Below, piece after piece: positions 1,056 through 50,372 of a stretch of 64,000 nucleotides of DNA. The DNA comes from Thermoleophilia bacterium. GTDB taxonomy: Bacteria; Actinomycetota; Thermoleophilia; Gaiellales; JAICJC01. Each line of letters starts with the position of its first letter. The first letter of the stretch is position 1. A program made the translations under genes and the position numbers. The stretch spans positions 44,425-108,424 of the forward strand of contig JAICYJ010000001.1 of assembly GCA_025934255.1 (NCBI GenBank), written 5' to 3'. Under the pieces are notes generated by a model that ran no database searches, was not told the DNA's origin, and worked only from the letters and a program-made list of their open reading frames with translations.

Positions 1056-1424
1056 ATGAACATCCCGCCCGGATTCCGGATCGTGGCCGAGACCAGCGCG
1101 TTCGAGCGGTCGGTGGCCGAGATGGTGCGCCGGGTACCGGCCGGCACGGTCGCCAGCTACGGCCGGATTGCCGCCTGGCTGGGTAAGCCGGAAGCCGCCA
1201 GGGCCGTGGGCGGGGCGATGGCACGGTCGCCGGACGGGGTGCCGGCTCACCGCGTGGTCACGTCCGGCGGCCGGCTGGCGCCCGGCTGGGAGCGGGAGCA
1301 GGCGGAGCTGCTGCGCGCCGAGGGCGTGCGGGTCTGGCGCGGTCACGTGCGCGAGCCGATCCCGTGGTGGGACGGCCCGCCGAGGAGCGCTAGGAGTACT
1401 CGACCTGGTCGTAGTAGCGGGTGA
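1056..1424 (+). CDS. Alkyltransferase-like (ATL) protein: MGMT/Ogt DNA-binding domain with the acceptor Cys replaced by Ala
   Basis: VASYGRIAAWLGKPEAARAVGGAMARSPDGVPAHRVV matches the helix-turn-helix plus PCHRV region of O6-alkylguanine-DNA alkyltransferases, but reads PAHRV here. The protein is a single domain of 122 aa, similar in layout to YbaZ/Atl1. Confidence 0.8.
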   Translation: MNIPPGFRIVAETSAFERSVAEMVRRVPAGTVASYGRIAAWLGKPEAARAVGGAMARSPDGVPAHRVVTSGGRLAPGWEREQAELLRAEGVRVWRGHVREPIPWWDGPPRSARSTRPGRSSG

Positions 1425-2421
1425 CCCGCCGCCCGACCGAGGTGCGTCCGTCCAGCGCCGCCACCGCGTCCGCGTCGATCTCGCCCAGCGCCAGCCGCAC
1501 GGCCAGCCAGGGCAGGTTCAGGTCGGGCTGGTAGACCAGCGTCGAGATCCGCGGGTTGATCTCGAGCAGCCGATCGCCCAGGAACTGCACGTTCACGATC
1601 CAGTCCAGCCGAAGCGCCTCGACCAGCCGGCGCGAGTGCTCGAGCAGGTCGGGCCGGTCGATGATCCGGAACTCCATGGCCAGACCGGCCCGAAACGCCT
1701 CGCGCGTCTTCGCGCTTGCGACCAGCGTGCGGCCGTCCCGGCAGAGCGCGTCCACCGCCAGCTCCTCGCCCTCGACCAGCTCCATCACCAGCATCTCGGG
1801 GAAGCCCTCGCCGCCGTCCAGGATCTCGACCGCATCCGCGAGGGACAGGGGCAGCAGCGTGCCCGGCCGCCCGCCCAGCAGCTGCTGGCGCCGGTCGGCG
1901 CTCGTCGACAGCACCCGGAAGCCGCGCGAGCCCTTGGCCTCGAGCGGCTTCATGCAGACGTCGCGGCCGGGGTAGCCGAGCTCGGCGGCCGCCGCCCGGA
2001 AGCCGTCGGCATCGGAGGCCGCGATCGTGCGCGGCTGGGGGATTCCCAGCTGCTCCGCCAGACGCACCGTCTCGGACTTGGCGCTGGCCCGCTCGATCGC
2101 GTCCGGCCCGGACACCAGCACCGGCACGCCGAAGCGCTCGGCGCCGGCCGCGATCGCGCCCACCTCGGCCGATGACTGCGGGAACACCACATCGACGCGC
2201 TCCTGCTCGGCCACCTCCAGCAATGCCTCCAGGTACCCGGGGTGCGATCCCGGCGGCACCCGCCGGAAGCGGTCGCACAGGAAGCGTCCGGCCGACTCGT
2301 CGCGCATGTCCACACCGACCAGCCGCACCGGGCGCCCGTCGGCCTCCCGCAACGCCCGCAGCAGCCGCGGTGAGCCGGGCGCGCCGCTGGCCGTGACCAG
2401 GATCGTGAGCGGATCGCTCAC
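1390..2421 (-). CDS. ATP-grasp domain ligase (carbamoyl-phosphate-synthase-L / PylC-like)
   Basis: 343 aa. Contains LGYPGRDVCMKPLEAKGSRGFRVL, VMELVEGEELAVDAL and NVQF...LLEINPRIS, which are typical ATP-grasp B and C subdomain motifs. Its start overlaps the upstream stop by 4 nt (2418-2421). Confidence 0.8.
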   Translation of the reverse strand: MSDPLTILVTASGAPGSPRLLRALREADGRPVRLVGVDMRDESAGRFLCDRFRRVPPGSHPGYLEALLEVAEQERVDVVFPQSSAEVGAIAAGAERFGVPVLVSGPDAIERASAKSETVRLAEQLGIPQPRTIAASDADGFRAAAAELGYPGRDVCMKPLEAKGSRGFRVLSTSADRRQQLLGGRPGTLLPLSLADAVEILDGGEGFPEMLVMELVEGEELAVDALCRDGRTLVASAKTREAFRAGLAMEFRIIDRPDLLEHSRRLVEALRLDWIVNVQFLGDRLLEINPRISTLVYQPDLNLPWLAVRLALGEIDADAVAALDGRTSVGRRVTRYYDQVEYS

Positions 2422-3053
2422 AGGATCCAGCGGTAGACCTCGAACACCTCGGCCAGCTCGCGGCCGCTCTCGATCCCGTGGGTGCGGGCCAGGTTGCGGA
2501 TGTACTCCTCGTTCGCGTAGTTGCGGTGCTGCTGGCTGCGGTAGTGGCCGAGCGCCGTCACCTTCGCGTCCAGGTGCCGCGGCTCCAGGGCCACGTAGGC
2601 GTCCCGGCGGAAGGCGAAGCAGTTCCAGGGGATCTCGTAGCCGAGCAGGGTGGTGCGCTTGAAGGCGCGCATGCCCTCGCCCGCGATCGTCTCGTGGTCC
2701 TGGTGGATGTCACCCAGCGAGGGCATCAGCACCATGTCCGGGGCGATCTCGGCGTTCGCGGCCACCAGGATCTCGAGGATCTCCTGCCGTACGGTGGGGA
2801 AGGTGCGCACGTCGAAGTCGTGGATCGAGACGCGCTCCGGGTCGATGCCCAGGGCGGTGGTGGCGGCGCGGGCCTCGTGCACCAGCGTATCGGCGGGGAA
2901 GCCGTCGGGCAGCGAGCGCGATGCCGACGAGAAGGCGTGGTAGTGCACCTCGGCGCCGGCCTCGACCAGGCGCGCGATGGTGCCGCCGCAGCCGAACTCG
3001 CCGTCGTCCGTATGTGGCGCCAGCACCAGCGCGCGGCGTCCGGCTGCGATCAC
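2418..3053 (-). CDS. PIG-L / LmbE family N-acetylglucosaminyl deacetylase
   Basis: VLAPHTDDGEFGCGGTIARL and GDIHQDHETI are the PIG-L zinc-binding motifs. The start is set at the GTG at 3053 (GTGA overlap with the upstream stop at 3050-3052). The rest of track ORF 2418..4007 is a junk N-terminal extension that overlaps the next gene. Confidence 0.85.
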   Translation of the reverse strand: MIAAGRRALVLAPHTDDGEFGCGGTIARLVEAGAEVHYHAFSSASRSLPDGFPADTLVHEARAATTALGIDPERVSIHDFDVRTFPTVRQEILEILVAANAEIAPDMVLMPSLGDIHQDHETIAGEGMRAFKRTTLLGYEIPWNCFAFRRDAYVALEPRHLDAKVTALGHYRSQQHRNYANEEYIRNLARTHGIESGRELAEVFEVYRWIL

Positions 3054-4486
3054 GCGCGGGCCTGACGGATGCGGATGTCGGGTAACGCTGCCATGGTGAC
3101 GATCAGGGCGGTCAGGATCCACGACGCCGGATCCTCGAAGTACGCATTGTAAAAGAGCGAGCTGGTCAGCACAGCGGCCAGCGCTGCGGCCAGGCCGAAC
3201 CGCAAAAGCCGCTCCGGGCCGGTGCGGAACGCCGCCCACGCGATCGATCCGATCAGCGCCAGGTAGGCGGCCAGGCCCAGCGGGCCCAGCTCGGCCAGCA
3301 CGGTCACCGGCGTGGTGTGCGAGGCGGCCGTGCGCGTGCGGTTCGGGTGGGCGCTGCCGGCCAGTGCTGCGCGGGCGAAGCCGCCCAGCCCGGCGCCGTC
3401 GATCGGATGGTGCTTGATCACGTGCCAGCCGTCCGAGAGCAGCACCGAGCGGCCGCTCGTCACCTGCGTGGTTGAGCTGCCGTGCGACGAGACCAGCAGC
3501 CCGGCCACCCCCACCACCGCCACCGCGACGGCCAGGCCCACCAGCAGCCGCCGCGGCCAGATGGTGGCGCCGATCAGCAGGGAGCCGGCCGCCAGCGCCA
3601 TCAGGCTGGACTGCGAGTAGGACAGGTACTGGGCCAGGAACAGCAGCGCCATCAGCCCCAGCAGCTGCGGCGTCGCCCGGCGGTACACCGCCACCGCGGC
3701 CAGCAGCACGATCGTGACCGCCATGAAGCGGCCGTACACGCTGGCGTCGTAGAACAGCGAGTTGACCCGGAAGAACGAGGCGTACTGGTTGCTGACGATG
3801 ATCTTCTGATTCCAGAACAGGTGGCGGCTCTCGTACTGCCAGAACGCCACCGCGGCGAACACCAGCGCCAGCGCCACGTCCGTGTAGAGCATCATGCGCA
3901 GCTGGCGGAGGGTTGGGCGCAGCGCCACGATCCGGGTCGCCAGGTAGCCGAACGGCAGATAGAAGAACAGCATCTGGACGCCGCCCTGGTGGGAGTCGGC
4001 GCTCCACAGCAGCGAGATCGCGCTCCAGCCGATCAGCGCCGCCATCGTCCAGCCCACCAGGCCCATCTGGGGCCGCTGCTCGCGGCCGAGGGCGAGCGTG
4101 TAGGCATGGGCCAGCGCGATTGCGAGCAGGACGCCGTAGAGCGGCACCAGCAGGTTGGCCTGCTGCCCGCCCGCGTGCAGCGGGATCCGGCCCGGCGCAG
4201 CCGCCACCACCGCCATCAGCGCCAGCGTCGGCTTGCGATGGGCGATCACGGCCGCCACCCCGATCGCGATCAGCCCCACCAGCAGGCCGGCGGCGGCCAG
4301 CGCGGGCCGTCGTCCCGCGTCCGTCCGCATGGTCGAGATGGGCGAGTGCAGCAGGTCGCCGGCCAGGATCAGCACGCCCGCGGCGTAGGCCGCGAACCCG
4401 GCCGTTCGCAGGCTGCGCCCGCCGGCGCAGAGCTGCAGGGCGAGCCCGGCGGCCGCGACGATGGCGCCCAGCGCGATGCCGCTCAC
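3050..4486 (-). CDS. O-antigen ligase / polymerase-like (Wzy_C) polytopic membrane protein
   Basis: 478 aa with about 10-12 hydrophobic segments. It has the long periplasmic-loop region typical of the O-antigen ligase family (QYLSYSQSSLMALAAG...HTTPVTVLAELGPLGL). ATGA overlap at 4483-4486. Confidence 0.8.
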   Translation of the reverse strand: MSGIALGAIVAAAGLALQLCAGGRSLRTAGFAAYAAGVLILAGDLLHSPISTMRTDAGRRPALAAAGLLVGLIAIGVAAVIAHRKPTLALMAVVAAAPGRIPLHAGGQQANLLVPLYGVLLAIALAHAYTLALGREQRPQMGLVGWTMAALIGWSAISLLWSADSHQGGVQMLFFYLPFGYLATRIVALRPTLRQLRMMLYTDVALALVFAAVAFWQYESRHLFWNQKIIVSNQYASFFRVNSLFYDASVYGRFMAVTIVLLAAVAVYRRATPQLLGLMALLFLAQYLSYSQSSLMALAAGSLLIGATIWPRRLLVGLAVAVAVVGVAGLLVSSHGSSTTQVTSGRSVLLSDGWHVIKHHPIDGAGLGGFARAALAGSAHPNRTRTAASHTTPVTVLAELGPLGLAAYLALIGSIAWAAFRTGPERLLRFGLAAALAAVLTSSLFYNAYFEDPASWILTALIVTMAALPDIRIRQARA

Positions 4487-5154
4487 GGGATCGTCGCCGT
4501 GAATGAGGGCGGGTTGGGGGTGCGGTTGCCGGCCTGATCGACCGCCACCATCTCGATCCGGTAGCGTCCGGGCGCGAGCTTGCCGTACGCCAGGTGCGCG
4601 ACGTGCGGGACCACGCGCTTCTGCAGGACGATGCGGCTGCCCTGGCGCACGATCATCAGCGCGTACCCGTTCCCCGCCGACCGCGTGTAGTGGACGGCCA
4701 GCGCCACACGGCCCTTGCGCACCTGGTCGATCCGCATCGTGGGCGGCATGGTGTCGACGATGATCGCGTCCGGGATGGTGACCTCACGGCCATCCGCGAG
4801 CGTCACGCGCAGCCGGTAGCGGCCGTCCGCGGCCTGCCCAGCCGAGTCGGTGCTGCCGTCCCAGTGGAGCACCACCGGGCCCTTCCGGTAGCGGCGGCCG
4901 GTGGCGAGCGTCTTTTGGACGTTGCCGTTGGCGTCGACGATCGCCAGGTCCAGGGCCTGTGGCTTTCGCAGCGTGAAGCGGAGCTTGGCGGCCGGCAGGC
5001 AGCCGGGATCGCTGCAGCCGGGGGAGAACGCCTGCCGCACGTGGGGATGGCCAACCGCCGAGTGGTGCAGCTTCAGCTGCTCGGCGCGCAGAAACGCCGC
5101 GGCGCAGAGGGCGATCAGAATCAGCGGGATGGCGGCGGCGGCGCGGTGGCTCAC
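4483..5154 (-). CDS. Membrane-anchored protein with FlgD Ig-like domain(s)
   Basis: N-terminal transmembrane anchor (AAAAIPLILIALCAAAFL). LDLAIVDANGNVQKTLATGRRYRKGPVVLHWDGSTDSAGQAADGRYRLRV is the FlgD-Ig pattern (xDxxGxxV...WDGxxxxGxxxxDGxY). GTG start at 5154, with TACAAT (5166-5171, minus sense) 11 nt upstream. Confidence 0.6.
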   Translation of the reverse strand: MSHRAAAAIPLILIALCAAAFLRAEQLKLHHSAVGHPHVRQAFSPGCSDPGCLPAAKLRFTLRKPQALDLAIVDANGNVQKTLATGRRYRKGPVVLHWDGSTDSAGQAADGRYRLRVTLADGREVTIPDAIIVDTMPPTMRIDQVRKGRVALAVHYTRSAGNGYALMIVRQGSRIVLQKRVVPHVAHLAYGKLAPGRYRIEMVAVDQAGNRTPNPPSFTATIP

Positions 5155-5201
5155 GGTGCGCGCGGATTGTACGGCCGCACCGCGAGCCGCTGCGGCGTTC
5201 G

Positions 5202-6134
5202 TTACGTCTGCCGCAGCTCAGCCGGGACCGGCGAGGGGGCCGGCGCTGAGGAGGCCGGCTTGGAGGCCTTGACGCCCTTCGCCATGTAGACCGCGGCCAC
5301 GAGCAGGATCACGGCGGCGCCGATCACGTACCAGTACGGGGCGGCGTCCAGCGTCTTCAGGCCGGAGGCGGCCAGCACCACCGCGATCGCGCCGCGCAGC
5401 ATCCGCTCGGGGGCGCGGTTGGTGAAGTGCGAGCCGATCAGGATGCCCGGGATCGAGCCGATCAGGATCGAGCCGACGACGCTGAAGTTGGGGGTGCCCC
5501 AGACCAGCGTGGCCAGGCCGGCCGCGACCGTCACCAGCATCGCGTGGAACAGGTCGGTGCCGACCACGCGGCGGGCGGCCAGCGGGAACAGCGTCACCAG
5601 CGTGAGGCCGAAGAACACGCCCGAGCCGACCGAGGTCAGACCCAGGATGAAGCCGAACACGACGCCGATGGTGACGGCCAGCGCCTTGTGCCAGGTGTCC
5701 AGCGGGCCGTCGGTGGGCAGGTTGTCGGAGCTCCACAGCTTCGGGATCGTGAGGAACGTGCGGGCGGCCACCGTGATGCCGACGATCACCAGCACGATGC
5801 CGATCAGGTTCAGCAGCACGCTGTTCACGTCGATGCCGACTCGGGGGAAGATCTCGTAGAGGGTGAACACGCCCAGGATGGCGGCGGGAACGCTGCCGGC
5901 GCCCATCCACAGGCCCAGCTCGGTGTTCACGTTCTTGAGCTGGTGGTGGCGGGCGGCTCCGAACATCTTCGTGATCGCGGCGTAGATCAGGTCGCTGCCG
6001 ACGGCGGTCGTCGGCGGGATGCCGAACACGGTGATCAGGATCGGCGTCATCAGCGATCCGGCGCCCATGCCGGTGGCCCCGACCAGCATGCCGACGACGA
6101 GCCCCGCTGCGATCATTCCGGTGTTGATGTCCAT
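5202..6134 (-). CDS. TauE/SafE (DUF81) family sulfite/organosulfonate permease, paralog 1
   Basis: 310 aa with two 4-TM halves. Contains GATGMGAGSLMTPIL, VGSDL and LTSVGSGVFFG...VVGTDLFH, which is the internally duplicated DUF81 signature. Confidence 0.9.
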   Translation of the reverse strand: MDINTGMIAAGLVVGMLVGATGMGAGSLMTPILITVFGIPPTTAVGSDLIYAAITKMFGAARHHQLKNVNTELGLWMGAGSVPAAILGVFTLYEIFPRVGIDVNSVLLNLIGIVLVIVGITVAARTFLTIPKLWSSDNLPTDGPLDTWHKALAVTIGVVFGFILGLTSVGSGVFFGLTLVTLFPLAARRVVGTDLFHAMLVTVAAGLATLVWGTPNFSVVGSILIGSIPGILIGSHFTNRAPERMLRGAIAVVLAASGLKTLDAAPYWYVIGAAVILLVAAVYMAKGVKASKPASSAPAPSPVPAELRQT

Positions 6135-6179
6135 CTACCTGTGCCCCCGTCTCGATAGCCGTTGTCCACTTGCTCCACA

Positions 6180-6207
6180 AGTCTAAGTGATTTAGTGGGG
6201 AATGCAA
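6180..6207 (-). promoter_or_regulatory. Putative sigma-70-type promoter of tauE paralog 1 (TTGCAT-N16-TAGACT)
   Basis: The minus-sense sequence is CTTGCATTCCCCACTAAATCACTTAGACTTGT. The same -35, spacer length and -10 recur upstream of paralog 2, with 24 of about 32 nt identical. Confidence 0.4.
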
Positions 6208-6248
6208 GTGGCGTGTGACGAAACGATAGTTCCCCAGCCCGGAAGCTC

Positions 6249-7028
6249 CTAAAACAGGCCGAACAGTTTCAGGCCCGAGAAGGCCAGCACGGTGGCCAGC
6301 GAGCCGCGCAGCGCCCGCTCCGGGATCGACACCATTACCTGGGCACCGATCAGGATGCCGGGGATCGAGCCGCACATCAGATAGGCGACCGTCTCCAGAT
6401 GCACATCGGGGAGCAGGAAGTAGGAGGCGATCGCTGCCGGGATCGTCACCAGCGCCCCGTGATACAGGTCGGTGCCGACCACACGGTGTGCCGACAGCGG
6501 GAACAGCAGGATCAGGGCGATCCCGAAGAACGCACCGGCGCCGACCGACGTGATTCCAAAAACGTAGCCGAACACGACGCCGATCACGACCGCCGTGATC
6601 CTGTGATTGCGCGTCAGCGGCCCGTCGGCGACCGCCCCACTGCCGGTCCGCAGCCCGAACGCGCCGAAGGTGCGCACGACCACGATCACCGCGACCAGCA
6701 GCAGCGCTACCCCGATCGCGTACTTCAGCCGACTCTCAACGGCAGCGCTATCGGCCCCGATCAGCACGTGCAACGTGAACACCCCAGCCAGCGAGGCCGG
6801 CACGCTGCCCAGGGCCATCCACCAGGCAAGCTCCGTGTTGACGGTGTTCAGCGATAGGTGGCGCAGGCCGCCGACGCCCTTGGTGATGGCGGAGTAGAGC
6901 AGATCGGTGCCGACGGCGCCCACCGCGGAGGTGCCGAATAGGCCGATCAGCACCGGCGCCATCAGGGAGCCGGCACCCATCCCCGTCGCACCGATCAGCA
7001 CGCCGACCACCAGGCCGGCCAGGATCAG
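6249..7028 (-). CDS. TauE/SafE (DUF81) family permease, paralog 2 (start uncertain)
   Basis: Carries the same DUF81 motifs (GATGMGAGSLMAPVL, ITSVGAGAFFG, VVGTDLYH). The track ORF starts at the GTG at 7109, but that codon lies inside a terminator palindrome and upstream of the conserved promoter. The in-frame candidates downstream of the promoter are CTG 7028 (aligns with Met7 of paralog 1 and is preceded by GGGAG) and GTG 7010. Confidence 0.85.
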   Translation of the reverse strand: MILAGLVVGVLIGATGMGAGSLMAPVLIGLFGTSAVGAVGTDLLYSAITKGVGGLRHLSLNTVNTELAWWMALGSVPASLAGVFTLHVLIGADSAAVESRLKYAIGVALLLVAVIVVVRTFGAFGLRTGSGAVADGPLTRNHRITAVVIGVVFGYVFGITSVGAGAFFGIALILLFPLSAHRVVGTDLYHGALVTIPAAIASYFLLPDVHLETVAYLMCGSIPGILIGAQVMVSIPERALRGSLATVLAFSGLKLFGLF

Positions 7029-7068
7029 CTCTGCTCCCGTCGTCGCTCCCCCCGCCGCATTGCGAACA

Positions 7069-7096
7069 AGTCTAAGCGGAGTGGTGGGGAACGCAA
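7069..7096 (-). promoter_or_regulatory. Putative promoter of tauE paralog 2 (TTGCGT-N16-TAGACT)
   Basis: The minus-sense sequence is CTTGCGTTCCCCACCACTCCGCTTAGACTTGT. Hexamers and spacing match the paralog 1 promoter. Confidence 0.4.
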
Positions 7097-7126
7097 GCGA
7101 AGGCGGCACGATCGTGCCGCCTTCGC
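7097..7126 (-). terminator. 30-nt perfect palindrome (hairpin) 13 nt after the sat stop
   Basis: GCGAAGGCGGCACGATCGTGCCGCCTTCGC forms a 13-bp GC-rich stem around GATC. In minus sense it is followed by TTGCGTT, which is also the -35 of the next promoter. Confidence 0.45.
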
Positions 7127-7139
7127 CTGGCAGGTGCGG

Positions 7140-8306
7140 CTACCGGCCGCGGTATGCGGCGATCAGCACCTCGGCCACTTCGGGACGCGAGAACTCGACC
7201 GGCGGCACCTCTCCGTTGCCGAGCATCTCGCGCACCTTCGTGCCCGACAGGAACACGTGGTGGTCGGAGGGGTGCGGGCAGGTCTTGTTGGAGGCCATGT
7301 TCCCGCAGGTCTTGCAGAAGAACGTGTGGTCGAAGAACATCGGCTCGATGTCCAGCTCGTGCGGCTGGAACTCATCGAAGATGCGGTGCGCGTCGTAGGT
7401 GCCGTAGTAGCTGCCCACGCCGGCGTGGTCGCGGCCGACGATGAAGTGCGAGCAGCCGTAGTTCTTGCGACACAGTGCGTGCCACACGGCCTCCCGGGGG
7501 CCGGCGTAGCGCATCGCCGCGGGGAACACCCCGAGCACGGTGCGGTCGGCCGGGTAGTAGCTCTGCAGCAGCGTCTCGTAGCACTGCATACGCACGTTGG
7601 CGGGGATGTCGTCGCCCTTGGTCTTGCCGACCAGAGGGTGCAGCAGCAGCCCGTCGACGGTCTCCAGCGCGCACTTCTGGATGTACTCGTGCGCGCGGTG
7701 CACCGGGTTCCGCGTCTGGAAGCCGACCACGCGGCTCCAGCCCCGCTCGGCAAAGACCGCGCGGGTGTCCTTGGGATCGAGGTGGTACGCAGGGAAGGCC
7801 GGGCCGGGCCGCTTGAAGACCGTCACCGGGCCGCCCACCAGGGTGGGGCCCTCGGCGTAGATCTGCGCGACGCCCGGATGCTCCTGCTCGGTGGTGCGGT
7901 ACGTCCTGGCCGCCTCGTTCTCGCGGTCGACGCTGAACACCTCCTCCACGTCGAGCACGGCCAGCAGCCCACCGTCGGCGCTCTCCAGCGCCAGCCGGTC
8001 ACCGTCGGGGGCGTCGGACACGGACAACGTCACCGGCATCGCCCACGGCAGCCCGTTTGCGAGGTGCATGTTCTCGACCGAGGCGTCGTAGTCGGCCCGG
8101 GTCATGAACCCGGTCAGGGGCGACAGCGCCCCCGAGGCGATCATGTCCAGGTCGGCCGTCTGCTTGTCGCTCATCCGCACTCGCGGCAGCGACTCGGCCT
8201 CGGCCGCCAGGGCCGCCGCCTCATCACCGCTGACGGTGCGGTCGATCAGCTCGCCGCCGTGCGGCGCGATCACGTTCGACTTCGTCGATGCGGTCGCCTC
8301 CGGCAT
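7140..8306 (-). CDS. sat: Sulfate adenylyltransferase (ATP sulfurylase), homo-oligomeric Sat type
   Basis: 388 aa. Contains GFQTRNPVHRAHEYIQ and FIVGRDHAGVG, which are the ATP-sulfurylase active-site motifs. Confidence 0.95.
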   Translation of the reverse strand: MPEATASTKSNVIAPHGGELIDRTVSGDEAAALAAEAESLPRVRMSDKQTADLDMIASGALSPLTGFMTRADYDASVENMHLANGLPWAMPVTLSVSDAPDGDRLALESADGGLLAVLDVEEVFSVDRENEAARTYRTTEQEHPGVAQIYAEGPTLVGGPVTVFKRPGPAFPAYHLDPKDTRAVFAERGWSRVVGFQTRNPVHRAHEYIQKCALETVDGLLLHPLVGKTKGDDIPANVRMQCYETLLQSYYPADRTVLGVFPAAMRYAGPREAVWHALCRKNYGCSHFIVGRDHAGVGSYYGTYDAHRIFDEFQPHELDIEPMFFDHTFFCKTCGNMASNKTCPHPSDHHVFLSGTKVREMLGNGEVPPVEFSRPEVAEVLIAAYRGR

Positions 8307-8869
8307 CAGGCGACGGCCTCCTCTTTCTCGCGTGCGATGAAGCCGAGCTGCTCGAGCTGGGTGATCACGTGCTGCGCCGACTGCTCGGGCGAGCGGCCCT
8401 CGGTCTCGACCACGATCTCGGCGTGCTCGGGAGCCTCGTAGGGATCGGAGACGCCGGTGAACTCCTTGATCTCACCGGAGAAGGCCTTCGCGTACAGGCC
8501 CTTCACGTCGCGGCGGGCGCACTCGTCGAGCGACGTCGCCACGAACACCTCGACGAAGCGGTCGCCGATCATCTCGCGAACGGCGTCGCGGGTCTCGGCG
8601 TAGGGCGAGATGGCCGCCACGATCACGCCGGCACCGTGCCGGGTCAGCAGCTTCGCGACGAAGCCGATGCGCAGGATGTTGGCGTCGCGGTCCTCACGCG
8701 AGAAGCCGAGGCCCTTGCTGAGGTTGGTGCGGACGACGTCGCCGTCCAGGTGGTCGACCAGGATGCCGCGCCGTTCCAGCTCCGGGCCGACGATCTCCGC
8801 GATGGTGCTCTTTCCGGCCCCGGACAATCCGGTGAACCAGAGGGTGAATCCGTTGGTTTCATTCCCCAC
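8306..8869 (-). CDS. cysC: Adenylylsulfate (APS) kinase
   Basis: Contains the [18 protein letters not shown]-loop, [10 protein letters not shown] and [11 protein letters not shown]. The start is set at the GTG at 8869 (AAGGAA lies 9 nt upstream). The track extension to 8935 overlaps the cysH stop. Confidence 0.92.
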
Positions 8870-8913
8870 GAGTATTCGTTCCTTTCGTTGTATCGTCTGA
8901 CGCGTTGTAGCCG

Positions 8914-9618
8914 CTAGTCGCCGTGCAGGCCGCACTCGACCTTGCCCGTGCCCTTCCAGCGGCCCGTGCGCTCGTCGGCGCCGCTGTCCACCGAGGCGGT
9001 GCAGGGGACGCAGCCGATCGACGGGTAACCGTGGTCGTGCAGCGGGTTGTACGGGATGCCGTGCCTCCAGATGTAGCGCCAGACATCGCGGTTGGTCCAG
9101 TCGGCCAGCGGCTGCACCTTCACAACGCCGCGACGCTCATCTACCTCGATTTTGCGGGCACTTTCCCTGGTTGTCGACTGGTCGCGCCGAATTCCCGTGA
9201 TCCAGGCGTCCATGCCCTCCAGCGCCTGGCGCAGCGGCGCCACCTTGCGCATCGCGCAGCAGCCGTCGGGATCCCGCTCCCACAGCCGGTCTCCATGCTT
9301 GGCCGCCTGCTCGGCGACCGACAGCTCCGGCTCGATCCGCTGGAACCGCACCGGGTAGCGCTCGATCAGCTTCTGGCGGGTCTCGTATGTCTCGCGGAAC
9401 AGCAGGCCGGTGTCGAACTCGACCACCCGCACGTCGGGCTGGATCTCCGACAGCATGTGCACCAGCACCGAGCTCTGCTTCTGCCACGAGCAGGTCAGCA
9501 CCAGCCGCGGGTGGAACAGCTCCACGGCCACGCGCAGCACGTCCTCGGCGCTGCGCGACTCGAGATCGTCGGCCAGGCGGGCTGCCTCGGCCGGGCTGAT
9601 GGGAAGCGTGGTGCTCAT
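8914..9618 (-). CDS. cysH: Assimilatory adenylylsulfate/phosphoadenylylsulfate reductase, Fe-S (APS-reductase) type
   Basis: The sequence from MSTTLPIS... contains DGCCAMRKV and SIGCVPCT (the CC...CxxC cluster ligands) and the C-terminal KVECGLH catalytic motif. The ATG at 9618 forms an ATGA overlap with the comA stop. The remaining N-terminal part of track ORF 8914..10170 is junk. Confidence 0.92.
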
Positions 9619-10394
9619 GTGGCGGTGGGGATGTCTCGCAGCAGCAGGTCCGGCAGCGTGTCGGAGCGCAGCCCCAGCCGCAGCGTCTCCAGCGGGATCA
9701 CCTCGTCGTGCGGGATGTTGCCGAGGTTGCACTCGGGGCCGAGGTGCCGGATGAACCAGGCCTGCTGCTCCTTCTGGGGCGCCTCGAACAGCAGGCTGTC
9801 GGCCGGGATCTCGTGCACGATCTCGTCGATCAGGCCGCTGCGCACCTCGCCGGTGCCGCGGAAGATGCCGGCGGTGCCGGTCTCGCGGGCCTCGGTGATC
9901 ACCTTCCAGGCGCCCGCCTCCAGCTCCTCCTTGATCCAGGCCACCCACTGGTAGGGCGCGAAGATCGAGTCCTGGTCCTTCGAGCCCACCTCGGACAGCA
10001 CCACGAACTCGTCGGCCAGGGAGCTGATCAGCTCCTGCTTGCTCTCGCGCTCCATCTGCAGGGTGCCGTCGGACACCTCCACGTGGGTGAAGCCGTGGCC
10101 GCGCGTCCAGCGCCGGAACTCGTCCACGCGGCCGCGCGCGACCGCCGCCTCGAGCAGGGTGCCGCCGCACATGACGGGCGTCTCGTAGGAGTGGTAGAGC
10201 TTCACCTTCGCGGACAGGTTCTGCGTCACGTAGGACGTGCCCCAGCCCAGCTTGACCATGTCCACGTACTCCCCGGAGGCCTCGAACATGCCGTCCACCT
10301 CGGCCAGGGTCATGCCCTTGTCGATCACGTGGGTGAGCCCGCGCTCACGCGGCTTGGACGGGCGCATCGGTAGGCCCAGGAACTCTTCGACCAT
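9615..10394 (-). CDS. comA: (2R)-phospho-3-sulfolactate synthase
   Basis: ERGLTHVIDKG, VDMVKLGWGTSYV, CGGTLLEAAV, THVEVSDGT and VVLSEVGSKD line up with the ComA family (PF02679) signature as I remember it from Methanocaldococcus ComA. Confidence 0.9.
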   Translation of the reverse strand: MVEEFLGLPMRPSKPRERGLTHVIDKGMTLAEVDGMFEASGEYVDMVKLGWGTSYVTQNLSAKVKLYHSYETPVMCGGTLLEAAVARGRVDEFRRWTRGHGFTHVEVSDGTLQMERESKQELISSLADEFVVLSEVGSKDQDSIFAPYQWVAWIKEELEAGAWKVITEARETGTAGIFRGTGEVRSGLIDEIVHEIPADSLLFEAPQKEQQAWFIRHLGPECNLGNIPHDEVIPLETLRLGLRSDTLPDLLLRDIPTAT

Positions 10395-10397
10395 GGC

Positions 10398-10985
10398 TTA
10401 TAACCTCGAGTAGATGGTTTCCTCGAGCCGCTTGCGCGCCTCGACCTGGACGTTCTCATAGAGCGATTCACCGTGCGTGTCCATGCCCACGATCAGCGGG
10501 CCGAAGTCCTTGACGCGGAACTTCCAGAGGCACTCGGGCATCAGGTCCTCCCACTCGACCTGCTCGATCTCCTCGATCTGGGTGGTCTCGAGCGCGGCCG
10601 CGCCGCCGACGATCGCCAGGTAGACGCCGCCGTGCTCGCGCAGAGGCACCAGCGCCTCCGGCAGCAGGCCGCCCTTGCCGATGATGGCGCGGGCGCGGTG
10701 GTCGCGCACCAGCCCTTCGGTGAAGCGGCTCATGCGGGCGCTGGTGGTGGTGCCGATGCACATCGGCTCGTAGCGGCCCTCGCCCAGCTTGCGCACGTTG
10801 GGCGCGGTGTGCAGCAGCGCCGCGCCGCGAAGCGACATCGGCGGCTCGACGCCCTTGTCGAAGATGCGGATCTGGGTGGCGTCGCGGATGCCGATGATGT
10901 GGCCCTGGACGGTGACGGTGTCGCCGGCCCGGAACTCGCGCACGGCCGCCTCGTCGGTGGGGAAGGTGATCTCGTGATGCATCAC
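10398..10985 (-). CDS. Class I Fe-S hydro-lyase beta subunit (fumarate hydratase / tartrate dehydratase C-terminal-domain type)
   Basis: 195 aa. Contains RAIIGKGGL, VYLAIVGGAAAL and PLIVGMDTHGESLY, typical of Fumerase_C. GTG 10985 and ATG 10982 form a GTGATG overlap with the alpha-subunit stop. GGGAGG lies just upstream. Confidence 0.88.
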   Translation of the reverse strand: MMHHEITFPTDEAAVREFRAGDTVTVQGHIIGIRDATQIRIFDKGVEPPMSLRGAALLHTAPNVRKLGEGRYEPMCIGTTTSARMSRFTEGLVRDHRARAIIGKGGLLPEALVPLREHGGVYLAIVGGAAALETTQIEEIEQVEWEDLMPECLWKFRVKDFGPLIVGMDTHGESLYENVQVEARKRLEETIYSRL

Positions 10986-11902
10986 GCCTCCCGGTCGTAG
11001 TCGACGGTGCCGTCACTGAAGATGTGGGCGCTGGCGCGGCGGGCCGCCCAGCACTGGTAGTTCACGGCCACCGGATTCAACGTGATGTGGGTGTGGGCCT
11101 GCTCGACGTGCACCGACAGCACGGTGGTGTCGCCGCCCAGCCCCATCGGGCCGATGCCGGTCTCGTTCAGCAGCTCGAACAGCTCGCGCTCCAGCGCGGC
11201 CACGTCCGGATCCGGGTTGACATCGTCCACCGGCCGCGCGATCGCCTCCTTGGCCAGGTGCATCGCCAGGTCGGCGGAGCCGCCGATGCCGACGCCGACG
11301 ATGCCGGGCGGGCAGGGCTTGCCGCCGGCGCCGACGATCGAGTCGAGCACGAACCGCTTGATCGCCGAGACGCCGTCGGCCGGCACCAGCATCTTCAGAA
11401 AGCTCATGTTCTCGGAGCCCGATCCCTTGGGGATGCACTTCACGTCCAGGCCGTCCCAGTCCGGCACGAACTCCCAGTGGATGTGGGGGATCTTGTGGCC
11501 GGTGTTGTCGCCGGTCGGCACCCGGGTGAGCGTGTGCACGGTGTTCGAGCGCAGCGGGTGCTCCAGCGTGGCGCGGCGGGTACCCTCGCGCAGGGCCTGC
11601 TCGATGCGGGCCGGGTGCAGCGGGAAAAGCTCGCCCAGGCGCACGTAGTAGACGGCCAGGCCGGTGTCCTGGCAGACCAGGTTCTGGCGCTCGTCGGCCA
11701 CCGAGACGTTGGTGTTGATCGTCTCCAGGATGCGCTTGCCAACCTTGTGGGTCTCGGTCTCCATGGCGTTTCGGAGGGCGTCGCGCAGGTCCTGGGGGAT
11801 GTCCTTCAGCGACCACACGTAGAGGTGCGCGGCGGCGTCCTCGACGGTCTGCTGCAGGTCTGTGGTGGTGTCGATGGCCAAGGTGATCCTTTCAGCGGGC
11901 AT
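10982..11902 (-). CDS. Class I Fe-S hydro-lyase alpha subunit (fumarate hydratase / tartrate dehydratase N-terminal-domain type)
   Basis: Contains LVCQDTG, GGKPCPPG and NYQCWA (three cluster cysteines) plus IPKGSGSENMS. ATG 11902 is chosen as the start; the track ORF starts at GTG 11926. Either start overlaps the flavoprotein stop at 11892. Confidence 0.88.
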   Translation of the reverse strand: MPAERITLAIDTTTDLQQTVEDAAAHLYVWSLKDIPQDLRDALRNAMETETHKVGKRILETINTNVSVADERQNLVCQDTGLAVYYVRLGELFPLHPARIEQALREGTRRATLEHPLRSNTVHTLTRVPTGDNTGHKIPHIHWEFVPDWDGLDVKCIPKGSGSENMSFLKMLVPADGVSAIKRFVLDSIVGAGGKPCPPGIVGVGIGGSADLAMHLAKEAIARPVDDVNPDPDVAALERELFELLNETGIGPMGLGGDTTVLSVHVEQAHTHITLNPVAVNYQCWAARRASAHIFSDGTVDYDREA

Positions 11903-13106
11903 CCGCGGCGGCGGCGCGGCCGGCACGGCGCCCGAACACGGTGCAGTCGAGCAGGGAGTTCCCCATCATGCGGTTGCGGCCGTGCACGCCGCCGGTGATC
12001 TCACCGGCTGCGAACAGGCCCTCGACGGTGGTGCGGCCGTCCCGGTCGATCACCAGCCCGCCGTTCTGGTAGTGAAGCACGGGATAGGTCAGGATCGGCT
12101 CGGTCAGCGGGTCGATCCCGGCGTGGCGGTAGCGCCGCATCATGTAGGGCAGCACCTGGTCGGCCACCTCCGCCTCGATCTGCGTGGTGTCGAGCAGCAC
12201 CGCCGGGCGGCCGTCCGGCGTGGTCAGACCGCGGCCCTCGTCGCACTCCTTCACGATCGCCTCCGCCACCGTGTCGCGCGGCGCCAGCTCGTCGATGAAC
12301 CGCTCCCCCTTGCCGTTCACCAGCAGCGCGCCGTAGCTGCGCGTGGTCTCGGGGATCGAGTAGCCCTGCAGCGGTGGCGGCCAGGCGCCGCCGTTGGGGT
12401 GGTGCTGCAGCGAGTCCTCGTCGCGGGCCGCCGCTCCCAGCTCGCGGGCCAGCGCCGCCACCTCGCCGGTGGCGCCGGGCTGGTTGGTGGTGAGAACGCC
12501 ACGGCGGCTGGCTTCCGCATAGCAGCGGCCGCCGGCCGCCAGCACGACGGTGCCGGCCGCGATCGTGGCCGTCTGCCCCTCGCAGTCGACCGTCGCCGTG
12601 AAGTGGCCATTGGGCTTCGCGAACGCCGTCAGCGCCGCGTGACCGTGGATCTCGACGCCCTCGGCGGCCAGCGCGCCGCGCAGCGCGTGGGCGATGGCGT
12701 GGCCGGTGCGGTCGCCCACCTGCAGCAGGCGCCTGGTGGACGCGCCGCCGCAGCGGGCCAGCCGGTAACCGTCGCCCTCGCGTGAGAACTCGACGCCCAG
12801 CTGCTCCAGCCAGGCGATCGCCTCCGGCGCCTCCCCCGTCAGCACCGACACCAGCTCCATGTCGGCCGTGTCGTGCGAGGAGCGGTAGACGTCGGCGGCG
12901 TGCTGCTCGGGTGAGTCGTCGCCGCCGATGGCGGCCTGGATGCCGCCCTGGGCCTTGCCGGTGTTACAGGAGGCGGGCGAGCCCTTGGTGATCAGCACCG
13001 TCCGCGCGCCCTCACGGGACGCCGCCCACGCCGCGGCCAGGCCGGCGCCGCCGCTGCCGACCACGAGCACGTCCGCGCGTGTCGGAAGTGAGCTCACGGG
13101 CCGCAT
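11892..13106 (-). CDS. Soluble FAD flavoprotein of the succinate dehydrogenase / fumarate reductase / L-aspartate oxidase family (FAD_binding_2), lacking the C-terminal domain
   Basis: Contains the DVLVVGSGGAGLAAA dinucleotide fold, AQGGIQAA, DRTGHAIAHAL, LQHHPNGG, ELAPRDTV, LHYQNGGL and GEITGGVHGRNRMMGNSLLD. It is only 404 aa, and no Fe-S or cytochrome partner gene is adjacent. Confidence 0.85.
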   Translation of the reverse strand: MRPVSSLPTRADVLVVGSGGAGLAAAWAASREGARTVLITKGSPASCNTGKAQGGIQAAIGGDDSPEQHAADVYRSSHDTADMELVSVLTGEAPEAIAWLEQLGVEFSREGDGYRLARCGGASTRRLLQVGDRTGHAIAHALRGALAAEGVEIHGHAALTAFAKPNGHFTATVDCEGQTATIAAGTVVLAAGGRCYAEASRRGVLTTNQPGATGEVAALARELGAAARDEDSLQHHPNGGAWPPPLQGYSIPETTRSYGALLVNGKGERFIDELAPRDTVAEAIVKECDEGRGLTTPDGRPAVLLDTTQIEAEVADQVLPYMMRRYRHAGIDPLTEPILTYPVLHYQNGGLVIDRDGRTTVEGLFAAGEITGGVHGRNRMMGNSLLDCTVFGRRAGRAAAADAR

Positions 13107-13121
13107 TGTACAGAAGAAAAC

Positions 13122-13529
13122 CTAATCTTGAAAATAAGCGGAGCTTATATCCTGGATCTCCGCGAGGTCACCGGGAGCCGGGCGCCAGGGCAGCACCAGC
13201 GGGTCGCCGTGGTAGCGCGGGATCACGTGCACGTGGTAGTGGAAGACCGTCTGCCAGGCGGCCGCACCATTGGATTGCATGATCGTGACGCCGTCCGCCG
13301 CAAGGCCCGACAGGGCCCGGCCGGCGATGTCGCGCGAGACCAGCGCACAGTGCGCCAGGTCCTCGTCAGAGATGTCCTGGATGTCGCGGGCGTGGGCCCG
13401 CGGGATCACCAACGCGTGGCCGCGGGTGGCCGGGTTGATGTCCATGATCACGATCGCCCGCTCGTCCTCGTGGATGCGGATCGAGGGCAGGTCGCCGGCC
13501 ACGATCCGGCAGAAGATGCAGTCGTCCAT
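13122..13529 (-). CDS. HIT (histidine triad) family nucleotide hydrolase/transferase
   Basis: 135 aa. Contains CIFCRIV, the NPATRGHALVIP region and the triad HYHVHVIP. Confidence 0.9.
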   Translation of the reverse strand: MDDCIFCRIVAGDLPSIRIHEDERAIVIMDINPATRGHALVIPRAHARDIQDISDEDLAHCALVSRDIAGRALSGLAADGVTIMQSNGAAAWQTVFHYHVHVIPRYHGDPLVLPWRPAPGDLAEIQDISSAYFQD

Positions 13530-13569
13530 GGCCCGGATGCTATCGCCCGCTCCCCGCTAGGATCGCGCG

Positions 13570-14541
13570 ATGGAAACGGACCAGCGCACGCCGTTCGTGC
13601 CGGACGGCTTCGTTCCGCCCGCCGGCCTGGCCACGGCCGGCTTCGTGCTGGAGCCGCTCGGTCCACAGCACAACGACTCCGACTACGACGCCTGGACCTC
13701 CAGCATGGAGCACATCCGGGCGACGCCCGGCTACCCCGACGGCAGCTGGCCGCACCCGATGACGCTCGAGCAGAACCGCGGCGACCTGGAGCGCCACCAG
13801 CGCGACTTCGAACAGCGCAAGGGCTTCACCTACACCGTGCTCGACCCGGGCTCGCGGTCGGTGATCGGCTGCGTCTACATCTATCCCTGCAAGCGGCCGC
13901 TGCACGATGCCGAAGTGCTGCTGTGGGTGCGGGCCACCCACGCACAGCTCGACCGGGAGCTGTGGCGGGCGGTCTGGGAGTGGCTCGATCGCGACTGGCC
14001 GTTTCGCTCGGTCAGCGCGCCCGGTCGGCTGGAGGTGGTGGCGACCACCGCGCGCTGCCGGCTAGAGCTGCTGCGACGGCAGGATGCCGAGCCGCTGCAG
14101 CGACTGTACGGCGACCCGGAGGCGATGCGCTTCATCGGCGCCGACGGCTCGGTGCGCACGCCCGAGCAGACGGCGGCCGGCGTCGGCCGCCTGATCGACC
14201 ACCAGCAGGCGCACGGGTTCTCGCTGTGGGCGGTGGCCGACCGCAACGGCGGTGAGGTGATCGGCGTGGCCGGCCTGGTGCTGGTGGAGCTGATCGGCCC
14301 CGACGTGGAGGTGGTGTACGAGCTGGTGCGCGACGCCTGGGGCCGCGGCATCGCCACCGAGGTCGGCCGCGCCTGCCTGGACGTCGCCTTCGGCCCGCTG
14401 GGGCTGGGGCGGGTGGTGGCGCTGTCCTACCCGGAGAACGCCGCCTCGGTGCGGGTGATGCAGAAGATCGGCATGCGGGACGACGGCGAGTTCGAGGCAT
14501 ACGGACGCCGGATGGTGCGCTACGTGGCGGAGCCGGGTTAA
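13570..14541 (+). CDS. Tandem GNAT-family N-acetyltransferase
   Basis: 323 aa in two halves. The second half (LELLRRQDAEPLQRLYGDPEAMRF...VRDAWGRGIATE...NAASVRVMQKIGM) is a RimJ/RimL-like GNAT. The first half has a GNAT-like beta-strand pattern (FTYTVLDPGSRSVIGCVYIYP). Confidence 0.8.
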   Translation: METDQRTPFVPDGFVPPAGLATAGFVLEPLGPQHNDSDYDAWTSSMEHIRATPGYPDGSWPHPMTLEQNRGDLERHQRDFEQRKGFTYTVLDPGSRSVIGCVYIYPCKRPLHDAEVLLWVRATHAQLDRELWRAVWEWLDRDWPFRSVSAPGRLEVVATTARCRLELLRRQDAEPLQRLYGDPEAMRFIGADGSVRTPEQTAAGVGRLIDHQQAHGFSLWAVADRNGGEVIGVAGLVLVELIGPDVEVVYELVRDAWGRGIATEVGRACLDVAFGPLGLGRVVALSYPENAASVRVMQKIGMRDDGEFEAYGRRMVRYVAEPG

Positions 14542-24620: not shown

Positions 24621-24780
24621 TTCTTGCCCCCTCTACGCAAATACCGGGGCCGTGCCCACCCCGCCGATCTCAGCAATGTACATGCCGTTGACACCGATAT
24701 CCAGCCCCCAACCTCCCTCGCGGCCATGCCCGCCACGATGGGGCCCGACGTTACCGGTTGTGCCCGGCCTGCGCCACCGG

Positions 24781-25407: not shown

Positions 25408-25475
25408 GGTCAGGGTACGGAAGTCTGCCCGCGACCGGATCTCGGCGCAAAGCGGACGCCGACCGGAACGGTGGC

Positions 25476-26084: not shown

Positions 26085-26210
26085 GCTCTCACTGCTAGCG
26101 GGCGATCGAGCGGATGTCCACCCGCCGATCGGCGAGCCGGGCCGGTTCCTGACAGAATCGGCCGGTCGCGCGCACGGGGGCGCGCCGCAACTCACAAGGG
26201 GAGGTCTTGG

Positions 26211-29491: not shown

Positions 29492-29502
29492 CGCGGCCTA
29501 GG

Positions 29503-50368: not shown

Positions 50369-50372
50369 GAGA

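Follow-up and report, generated by a model that had tools for sequence, protein, structure and literature searches.

The 64,000-nucleotide stretch analyzed here (the window), from the genome assembly of a Thermoleophilia bacterium of the order Gaiellales, carries on its minus strand a tightly packed operon in which genes for sulfate activation and for the phosphosulfolactate synthase ComA are joined to a two-subunit, fumarase-like Fe-S hydro-lyase and to a truncated flavoprotein related to fumarate reductase. We propose that this operon encodes the biosynthesis of a sulfonated C3 carboxylic acid, with a route predicted to run through sulfoacrylate to 3-sulfopropionate, a reading to which we give a probability of roughly 0.55. 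Along this route Sat, CysC and CysH would activate sulfate and reduce it to sulfite, and ComA would combine sulfite with phosphoenolpyruvate (PEP) to give phosphosulfolactate, both steps following from strong family assignments. The hydro-lyase would then produce sulfoacrylate, either by dehydrating sulfolactate after the action of a separate phosphatase or by eliminating phosphate directly, and the flavoprotein, with non-covalent flavin adenine dinucleotide (FAD), would reduce the double bond of sulfoacrylate to yield 3-sulfopropionate. More tentatively, a PylC-like ATP-grasp ligase could activate the acid and join it to an amino sugar exposed by a PIG-L deacetylase, and the resulting surface polysaccharide would bear a permanently charged sulfonate group. 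Beyond the family assignments themselves, we infer all of this from gene context. The core genes, in order of transcription, are as follows.

11892..13106, minus strand: truncated FrdA/NadB-like flavoprotein of the 'PETxR' clade, 404 amino acids (aa), matching PF00890 FAD_binding_2 only (236 bits); predicted sulfoacrylate reductase
10982..11902, minus strand: class I Fe-S hydro-lyase, alpha subunit (PF05681, 309 bits; NF004885, 317 bits, above its cut-off of 276)
10398..10985, minus strand: class I Fe-S hydro-lyase, beta subunit (PF05683, 105 bits; subfamily-domain model TIGR00723, 149.7 bits, cut-off 145)
9615..10394, minus strand: ComA, phosphosulfolactate synthase (PF02679, 295 bits, cut-off 25); predicted to convert sulfite and PEP into (2R)-phospho-3-sulfolactate
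8914..9618, minus strand: CysH, sulfite-forming reductase of (3'-phospho)adenosine 5'-phosphosulfate, (P)APS (PF01507, 186 bits; NF002537, 274 bits)
8306..8869, minus strand: CysC, APS kinase (PF01583, 207 bits; NF002059, 250 bits, above its cut-off of 244)
7140..8306, minus strand: Sat, ATP sulfurylase (PF01747 and PF14306; NF003166, 547 bits)

Conserved linkage of the flavoprotein to ComA

The conservation scan was probed with the window proteins and covered one genome per species (80 loci, each taken with 10-kb flanks). The order flavoprotein-alpha-beta-ComA was found in about 60 species-level Thermoleophilia/Gaiellales genomes, and the closest homologues of ComA and of the flavoprotein came from Gaiellales/Thermoleophilia soil metagenome-assembled genomes. 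The recurrence of the same order in so many species indicates that the arrangement is not a chance juxtaposition, and the co-occurrence of these families in other genomes, on which the original prediction leaned, is borne out by this survey. After the four-gene block come, as a rule, either CysH-CysC-Sat or CysH with ~3 kb of further genes, and next the genes for TauE permeases, a FlgD_ig-domain protein and a Wzy_C protein; in a few genomes TauE follows the block directly. Since the sulfate-activation genes and the gene for a HIT-family protein vary between loci, the constant pairing is that of the flavoprotein with ComA.

In the window flavoprotein, the hinge Thr of the 'TExxR' motif found in its relatives is Pro, giving 'PETxR'. 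When only loci with 3 kb or more of flank on each side were counted, ComA lay within 6 kb of a PExxR-type flavoprotein in 62 of 62, as against 0 of 35 for the sister TExxR type, whose examined loci sit in contexts of the tricarboxylic acid (TCA) cycle type. A lyase was present in 58 of the 62 PExxR loci (50 class I alpha/beta, 8 Lyase_1), and in 50 the hydro-lyase genes separate the flavoprotein gene from ComA. A scan of metagenomes that used distant ~400-aa representatives as seeds yielded 80 loci, 76 of which had the ~535-aa type with a Thr/Ser-Glu ('TExxR'-like) hinge (one untypable by motif); ComA was found in none of these 76, and many adjoined class I fumarase genes. The other four were of the ~400-to-420-aa PExxR type, namely, two short Gaiellales contigs and loci L083 (37% GC) and L084 (32% GC), both of which carry an adjacent ComA.

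A neighbor-joining tree (52 sequences, 417 columns, 100 bootstraps) recovered the PExxR clade, whose members have ~400 to 425 aa and lack the C-terminal domain, as monophyletic in 100/100 bootstraps. Within the clade, the actinobacterial sequences and those linked to Lyase_1 form two separate branches, each again with 100/100, and its sister is the Nitrospirota/Nitrospina fumarate reductase type. A search of 1.8 billion representative proteins found about a dozen ~400-aa clusters at 34 to 64% identity, together with a larger set of 480-to-550-aa relatives with an N-terminal extension. The flavoprotein of L084 retrieved ~65 further clusters of ~400 to 425 aa, and among the organism-named ones three are from Magnetovibrionaceae or Verrucomicrobiae genomes.

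A truncated relative of fumarate reductase

The flavoprotein aligns with SdhA, FrdA and NadB across the FAD-binding and capping domains only, stopping ~20 residues past the GNSLLD motif with no match to PF02910 (Succ_DH_flav_C). The NCBIfam equivalog models gave ~250 bits against cut-offs of 450 to 1100, with coverage of the first ~400 profile positions, and the NadB model (TIGR00551) gave 250 bits, below its cut-off of 453. As the protein falls outside both SdhA/FrdA and NadB by these tests, the automated names 'L-aspartate oxidase' and 'succinate dehydrogenase flavoprotein' are misleading; the JGI annotation is aspartate oxidase.

The catalytic H/R/H/R set, equivalent to NadB H244, R290, H351 and R386, is invariant. 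The His that binds FAD covalently in SdhA and FrdA (R-S-H-T) is Asn here (S-C-N-T), and the position of NadB Glu121 (Escherichia coli numbering), a residue needed for L-aspartate oxidation, is occupied by Cys in the window protein and by Ala, Cys or Gly across the clade. With this set of residues, a reductase is a better fit than a succinate dehydrogenase or amino acid oxidase. The long-form relatives from Nitrospirota (43% identity, 'TEGIR' hinge) are fumarate reductases by gene context, in a reductive TCA order of ATP-citrate lyase, aconitase, FrdB-like Fe-S protein, flavoprotein and succinyl coenzyme A (CoA) synthetase. With such sisters nearest to it, the ancestral chemistry of the clade would be the reduction of a fumarate-type C=C bond. 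Descent from fumarate reductases, retention of the catalytic residues, non-covalent FAD and the lack of a NadB signature together make sulfoacrylate reductase the most likely function. Among the candidate products put forward originally, 3-sulfopropionate formed via sulfoacrylate fits best, while cysteate is unlikely owing to the missing Glu121. The series 3-sulfopropionate, sulfoacrylate, sulfolactate is accepted in sulfonate catabolism (PMC11489063).

Apart from the PExxR clade, the Nitrospirota long-form loci (L076, L078 and L080) encode a ~530-aa TExxR flavoprotein with a ~85-aa N-terminal extension and no SdhA-type C-terminal domain, and gut metagenome TExxR flavoproteins adjoin class I fumarase alpha/beta genes in L101, L105, L112, L116, L117, L125, L126 and L132. 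The ~530-aa TExxR flavoprotein is probably a distinct type of soluble fumarate reductase.

The hydro-lyase and its displacement in other lineages

The alpha subunit matched the Methanocaldococcus jannaschii fumarase (7XKY_A) with 240 bits and keeps the cluster cysteines in CQDTG, KPCPP and QCWA, while the TTSARM and GKGG motifs of the beta subunit are conserved relative to 7XKY_B and 2ISB; beta scored under every equivalog cut-off. A comparison of 55 to 60 ComA-linked hydro-lyases with 13 fumarases linked to fumarate reductase, a phylogenetically narrow reference set, gave ~24 discriminating columns per subunit, none of them in an assignable motif.

In nine non-actinobacterial loci (L083, L084 and L164 to L170), the module consists of ComA, the flavoprotein and Lyase_1. 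Locus L084 reads GT2, ATP-grasp, flavoprotein, Lyase_1, ComA, CysH-like protein, epimerase, methyltransferases and DegT, and L083 reads ComA, flavoprotein and a Lyase_1::AMP-binding fusion. Flavoprotein, Lyase_1 and ComA are neighbors in all seven of L164 to L170, contiguous in six; in L164 ComA is separated from the flavoprotein by an AMP-binding gene. The best plasmid matches of the L083 and L084 lyases are in the coenzyme M (CoM) clusters of alkene oxidizers, the Xanthobacter match being Xaut_5053 (XcbC), the gene directly after phosphosulfolactate synthase. Both lyases are 33 to 34% identical to XcbC (E values of 1e-91 to 1e-94), as against 1e-8 or nothing for XcbD; this comparison covers L083 and L084, and the lyases of L164 to L170 were assigned to Lyase_1 by Pfam. 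Experiments have shown that XcbC removes the phosphate of phosphosulfolactate by elimination, giving sulfoacrylic acid (PMC9457059). Given that two unrelated lyase types occupy the same position and that the product of one is known, the shared intermediate is most simply sulfoacrylate. Class I Fe-S lyases in Thermoleophilia and class II XcbC-like lyases elsewhere could have been recruited convergently for the same step.

The original prediction that ComA, the fumarase-like lyase and the FrdA-like flavoprotein act on sulfonate analogues in an undescribed pathway thus gains computational support from the 62/62 co-localization, the dedicated flavoprotein clade and the displacement of the lyase by an XcbC homologue. 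Its statement that the Xanthobacter route is absent holds in part. A tblastn search with the pXAUT01 proteins gave no match in the window or in the Thermoleophilia loci, the XcbC homologues being confined to L083 and L084, and homologues of XcbD, XcbE and XcbA were found neither in the window nor in any of the 170 loci. The first two steps are nonetheless apparently shared, with a class I hydro-lyase in the role of XcbC. That sharing of ComA, and by inference of sulfoacrylate, would also suit a variant CoM pathway in which sulfoacrylate is thiolated and decarboxylated to 2-mercaptoethanesulfonate by enzymes encoded elsewhere. We regard this as very improbable given the lack of the three Xcb homologues, the absence of ComB, ComC and ComDE from the Pfam scans of the window, the fact that no alkene or epoxide genes were seen, and a polysaccharide-synthesis context with carboxylate ligases.

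A branch toward sulfopyruvate deserves somewhat more attention but still seems unlikely. The flavoprotein would dehydrogenate sulfolactate or phosphosulfolactate to enol-sulfopyruvate or its phosphate, the hydro-lyase would serve as a tautomerase or dehydratase, and the product would continue to cysteate or taurine. Class I fumarase A has oxaloacetate tautomerase activity, and succinate dehydrogenase oxidizes malate, with enol-oxaloacetate formed as a side reaction, so both activities have known analogies; in addition, ComB and ComC are absent, and replacements would be needed if sulfopyruvate were the goal. A pyridoxal phosphate (PLP)-dependent OKR_DC_1 decarboxylase at 18234-19637, 5 kb upstream, which could act in the last part of this branch, is conserved in the closest relatives. 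Against this, a flavin without the covalent-FAD His has a lower potential, which favors reduction, and the lyase of the sister branch is a homologue of XcbC, whose product, sulfoacrylate, lies off any route to sulfopyruvate. The cluster contains no aminotransferase or ComDE, and linkage of the decarboxylase is absent outside the nearest relatives, where its candidacy for a cysteate-to-taurine step finds no support.

ComA, sulfite supply and operon structure

Passing PF02679 but missing the archaeal equivalog model TIGR03849 (253 bits, under the cut-off of 280), ComA is a member of the family and not an archaeal-type equivalog. Its best solved-structure match was Bacillus subtilis YitD (1U83, 214 bits), with 156 bits to M. 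jannaschii ComA (1QWG), and it is 39% identical to Xanthobacter XcbB. Alignments to 1U83 and 1QWG/24FO show that KxGWGTS, GGTLxE, VExSxG, EVGxK, ExREsG, FEAPxK and LETLRxGLRxDT are kept. The CysH translation contains DPDGCC, GCVPC and ECGLH, and its CC...CxxC cysteines are typical of the Fe-S, APS-accepting type, so CysC is perhaps not strictly required. As had been noted from the sequence, no ComB, ComC, ComDE, sulfite reductase or cysteine synthase family was found among the ~55 window open reading frames (ORFs) scanned with Pfam. These scans, which covered the window outside 24620-25491, 29491-31560 and the short ORF 62469-62873, gave no NIR_SIR or PALP match; CysH is instead translationally coupled to ComA.

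All 10 ORFs named earlier, from the HIT gene to the second TauE gene, are present on the minus strand between 5202 and 13529, co-directional and tightly packed, and the gene coordinates, overlaps and gaps described for the cluster agree with the ORF list and junction sequences. The HIT stop codon is followed by a 15-nt gap and the flavoprotein ATG at 13106, the flavoprotein stop codon overlaps the alpha ATG at 11902 (an alternative upstream GTG at 11926 is possible), and alpha and beta overlap as GTGATG. Beta and ComA are 3 nt apart, ComA and CysH overlap as ATGA, and CysC and Sat overlap as TGATG. The 44-nt gap between CysH and CysC holds a ribosome-binding-like GAAAGGAA ahead of the CysC GTG at 8869. 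Translational coupling is evident at each junction. In a window of ~70% GC, codon-position GC was used as a check on gene reality: the operon ORFs had third-position values of 0.86 to 0.98, in a codon-position pattern typical of real genes in the host genome. CysH, the ORF of which extends upstream, was left out of this scoring. All family calls, including PF02679, PF05681/PF05683, PF00890 and PF01925, were upheld by Pfam and NCBIfam.

Glycan context, permeases and fate of the product

The minus-strand string extends beyond the core genes on both sides, with the following features.

13122..13529, minus strand: HIT-family nucleotide hydrolase/transferase, first gene of the string (PF01230, 81.5 bits); accessory, not core
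7094..7129, minus strand: RNA hairpin with a perfect 16-bp stem, located between Sat and TauE permease 1 (-43.5 kcal/mol, z = -5.15, without a U tract)
6249..7109, minus strand: TauE/SafE (DUF81) permease 1 (PF01925, 123 bits)
5202..6134, minus strand: TauE/SafE (DUF81) permease 2 (PF01925, 141 bits)
4483-5154, minus strand: FlgD_ig-domain protein (Pfam); membership tentative
3050-4486, minus strand: Wzy_C O-antigen ligase/polymerase-like membrane protein (Pfam); membership tentative
2418..3098, minus strand: PIG-L family de-N-acetylase (PF02585), candidate for exposing the acceptor sugar amine; putative member
1390..2421, minus strand: PylC-like ATP-grasp ligase (PF21360 and PF15632), candidate for joining the sulfonated carboxylate to an amine; putative member

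According to Pfam, the same-strand string runs on from the permeases through FlgD_ig, Wzy_C, PIG-L and the PylC-like ATP-grasp to a GT4 glycosyltransferase, while the genes on the other flank (GNAT, SDR epimerase and GT2) are divergent. The order TauE, FlgD_ig, Wzy_C is kept in many Thermoleophilia loci, 20 of which have a downstream PIG-L. The window PIG-L is 52% identical (E value of 2e-84) to that of L166, and the window ATP-grasp is 36% identical over its full length (2e-91) to the ATP-grasp of the same locus, the order of which is PIG-L, ATP-grasp, flavoprotein, Lyase_1, ComA.

A carboxylate-activating enzyme accompanies the module in all nine loci outside Thermoleophilia. It is of the AMP-binding type in L164, L165, L170 and L083 (in some cases as a fusion with the lyase; L165 and L170 also have a PP-binding carrier), and of the ATP-grasp type in L084 and L166 to L169, with PIG-L alongside in L166. 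MBOAT proteins are found in L169 and L170, so that L170 has AMP-binding, carrier and MBOAT genes together, a trio that we take to resemble the Dlt D-alanylation system. The non-actinobacterial modules lie in polysaccharide loci containing Wzy, flippase, Bac_transf, glycosyltransferases, DegT, NeuB or Poly_export. The operon adjoins PIG-L, ATP-grasp, Wzy_C and glycosyltransferase genes, homologues of which are found beside the modules of other lineages as well, and on this ground a surface glycan is the probable acceptor of the product; for attachment of the sulfonated acid to a de-N-acetylated amino sugar in particular, our confidence stays somewhat short of one half. The same co-directional neighbors indicate that the block is probably not self-contained, as it had been taken to be.

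Directly after ComA, L168 (11525-12853) and L169 (11458-12783) encode a DUF7033 protein with a weak polysaccharide deacetylase match, which may be a functional counterpart of PIG-L. A sink in UDP-sulfoquinovose via the SDR 'epimerase' at 14589-15707 was considered and rejected, since its best structures are ordinary UDP-sugar 4-epimerases/dehydratases and no chain named sulfoquinovose synthase was among its 60 best structure matches. The HIT gene is restricted to the closest relatives (seven loci) and absent from the modules of other lineages.

Most Thermoleophilia loci have one or two TauE genes after the cluster, whereas the modules of other lineages have none. The permeases, taken originally as dedicated to the pathway, may bring in sulfate or sulfite instead of moving a sulfonate; a supply of sulfate or sulfite, or the export of surplus product, is more likely than a pathway-defining role. 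The adjoining permeases could also be cast as importers in a catabolic scheme, in which the flavoprotein and hydro-lyase would degrade 3-sulfopropionate or homotaurine via sulfoacrylate to sulfolactate, the series proposed for Roseovarius nubinhibens (PMC11489063). Such a scheme is hard to reconcile with an operon that includes sulfate activation and reduction and ComA, which forms a C-S bond, and with the lack of any sulfolactate sulfo-lyase or dehydrogenase. Non-covalent FAD also speaks against the oxidative direction, and other lineages have glycan and ligase genes but no transporter. We therefore give degradation very little weight.

The 'hairpin-plus-promoter' described after Sat stands as to the hairpin only. 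It is GC-rich and encloses and sequesters the GTG start codon of the first TauE gene, and it could be an element for processing, stability or translational control. A promoter and terminator scan of 4400-14000 gave weak consensus matches only, with no sigma-70-like site at the sat/TauE hairpin, and Rfam and tRNA scans of the window found no RNA element.

Weighing the proposed route

Several observations weigh against the route to 3-sulfopropionate. The hydro-lyase keeps all canonical fumarase motifs and its alpha subunit passes the NCBI 'fumarate hydratase' cut-off, which is compatible with a plain fumarase. ComB phosphatase is absent from the window scans, while action of the hydro-lyase on a phosphate ester is conjectural. 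No electron-transfer partner or NAD(P)H domain adjoins the flavoprotein, and the direction of its reaction is thus predicted from its residues and relatives. A basal actinobacterial subgroup (L061, L063 to L065, L067 and L069) has LysR, flavoprotein and ComA with no adjacent lyase, L024 and L058 likewise have the flavoprotein and ComA without an adjacent lyase, and in L001 HIT-ComA-CysH-CysC-Sat-TauE occurs without either flavoprotein or lyase. Of the 62 co-localized loci, about 50 are from related Thermoleophilia and hence are not independent observations. As regards glycan attachment, no natural glycan with a 3-sulfopropionyl group was found in the literature searched. The independent lineages number far below 62, being Thermoleophilia plus the nine non-actinobacterial loci of varied GC.

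Some of these points would suit a simpler explanation, namely, plain sulfolactate synthesis of the Bacillus type next to an ordinary fumarase and an ordinary fumarate reductase or L-aspartate oxidase. The clustering of sat, cysC and cysH with comA is not new and has a precedent in B. subtilis, where, according to a passage of PMC517825 citing Graham et al. 2002, paralogues of these genes in yitCD and yitBA-yisZ are clustered with comA for spore sulfolactate. The core of L001, the equivalog score of the alpha subunit and the aspartate oxidase call by JGI are all in line with this explanation. It does not account for a ComA linkage of 62/62 against 0/35 for the sister type, for the monophyly of the flavoprotein clade, for translational coupling at each junction or for the recurrence of the trio in distant lineages with a non-homologous lyase. 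Moreover, the flavoprotein misses every NadB, SdhA and FrdA equivalog cut-off by at least ~200 bits and lacks both the C-terminal domain and Glu121. We consider a sulfolactate-only pathway with unrelated neighbors quite improbable, and the sulfoacrylate-to-3-sulfopropionate route the best account of the operon.

In the basal subgroup just mentioned, loci L061, L063, L064, L065 and L069 (at about 12 to 15.5 kb in each) share a conserved 600-to-660-aa protein after ComA with faint GH42/DUF4350 similarity only; the L064 copy has a single N-terminal hydrophobic segment and may be secreted. Public labels for L063, L064 and L065 are 'Bifidobacteriaceae' or 'Bifidobacterium breve'. These labels look wrong, since L064 has a GC content of 72% and all three carry the flavoprotein-ComA pair of the Thermoleophilia subgroup.

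Other features of the window

Outside the operon, a 1,679-aa class II (B12-dependent) ribonucleotide reductase is encoded at 44808-49847 (minus strand), with an intein inside it that bears a LAGLIDADG homing endonuclease domain; the gene of the NrdR repressor (49901-50440, minus strand) precedes it. At 38733-43604 (plus strand), genes for a MaoC/mesaconyl-CoA hydratase, an acyl-CoA dehydrogenase, a family III CoA-transferase, an HpcH/HpaI (citrate lyase beta-like) lyase and a TetR protein form what looks like a cluster for the degradation of itaconate or another C5-dicarboxylate. In the stretches 20444-24620 (minus strand) and 25491-27578 (plus strand), two large NHL-repeat beta-propeller proteins (802 and 591 aa) adjoin a PilZ protein, and near their genes is that of a 695-aa protein whose FAD_binding_4 and BBE domains do not start before residue 286. 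The PLP-dependent Orn/Lys/Arg-type decarboxylase (18234-19637, minus strand) keeps its position in the closest relatives, L002 and L062.

Significance

If the proposed route is true, phosphosulfolactate would have a third fate beside CoM and spore sulfolactate, and a function would be provided for a large clade of 'aspartate oxidase / fumarate reductase' look-alikes that are mis-annotated in hundreds of soil and marine genomes. It would also represent a clean non-orthologous displacement between two fumarase superfamilies and, on the surfaces of Gaiellales and marine bacteria, a new glycan modification that is a sulfonate and not a sulfate ester. Few soil actinobacteria are as abundant, or as little studied, as the Gaiellales. 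Sulfonate groups resist sulfatases and are charged at any pH, so that surface sulfonates could affect phage or predator recognition, metal binding, desiccation tolerance and the organosulfur pool of soil and ocean. More broadly, with a probability somewhat short of one half, this may be a widespread, unrecognized route for placing carbon-bonded sulfonate on bacterial surface polysaccharides, with ligation by ATP-grasp or by adenylation, carrier and MBOAT proteins and with convergent recruitment of the two lyase types for one step.

Comparison with known systems

The combination of ComA with the lyase and flavoprotein, called undescribed in the original prediction, has no description in the literature searched, which likewise held none of ComA with a fumarate reductase-like enzyme, of de novo 3-sulfopropionate synthesis or of sulfopropionyl glycans, and no match for phosphosulfolactate synthase together with fumarate hydratase. 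A SAR11 paper that places ComA next to a transporter proved unrelated to the pathway.

Among the individual enzymes, the flavoprotein resembles the soluble, TfrA-like fumarate reductases of Nitrospirota in its 43% identity, FAD-binding and capping domains, H/R/H/R set and non-covalent FAD, both being without the long SdhA/NadB C-terminal domain. The Nitrospirota sisters differ in their ~85-aa N-terminal extension, ~40-aa tail, 'TExxR' hinge and adjacent FrdB-like Fe-S protein and TCA genes. The hydro-lyase shares its fold family, three cluster cysteines and beta motifs with class I fumarate hydratase and L-tartrate dehydratase (M. jannaschii 7XKY; TtdAB); unlike those of class I fumarases, its genes are inserted between a ComA-dedicated flavoprotein and ComA, and its predicted substrate is the sulfonate analogue of malate or the corresponding phosphate ester.

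As to pathways, the archaeal CoM route (ComA to ComE) is unlike the window system in that ComB, ComC and ComDE are missing from the ORFs scanned here. The Bacillus sulfolactate genes, as presented in the passage of PMC517825 cited above, are similar in having dedicated sat, cysC and cysH paralogues clustered with comA; that system has ComB (YitC) and ends at sulfolactate, while the window lacks ComB and adds the hydro-lyase and flavoprotein. In the misNOPQ cassette, a ComA homologue, an adenylating enzyme and a carrier protein provide the 2-sulfoacetyl group of misaugamycin B (PMC9136965), which is likewise a ComA-dependent sulfonated acyl group fed into a larger molecule. Both misNOPQ and Dlt involve another acyl group and acceptor, and the window has an ATP-grasp/PIG-L pair instead of an adenylation/carrier pair.

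Also among the closest known systems is the CoM pathway of Xanthobacter autotrophicus Py2 (XcbA to XcbE; PMC9457059), which uses the ComA homologue XcbB for the first step and with which the window system shares sulfoacrylate as a predicted intermediate. In place of XcbC the window has a non-homologous class I Fe-S hydro-lyase, and in place of XcbD (cysteine addition), XcbE (PLP) and XcbA it has the FrdA-like flavoprotein. The Xanthobacter pathway proceeds by thiolation in a context of alkene oxidation, whereas the window system is predicted to proceed by reduction to 3-sulfopropionate in a context of glycan synthesis. As proposed, the system is a ComA-dependent sulfonate biosynthesis that branches from the bacterial CoM route after sulfoacrylate.

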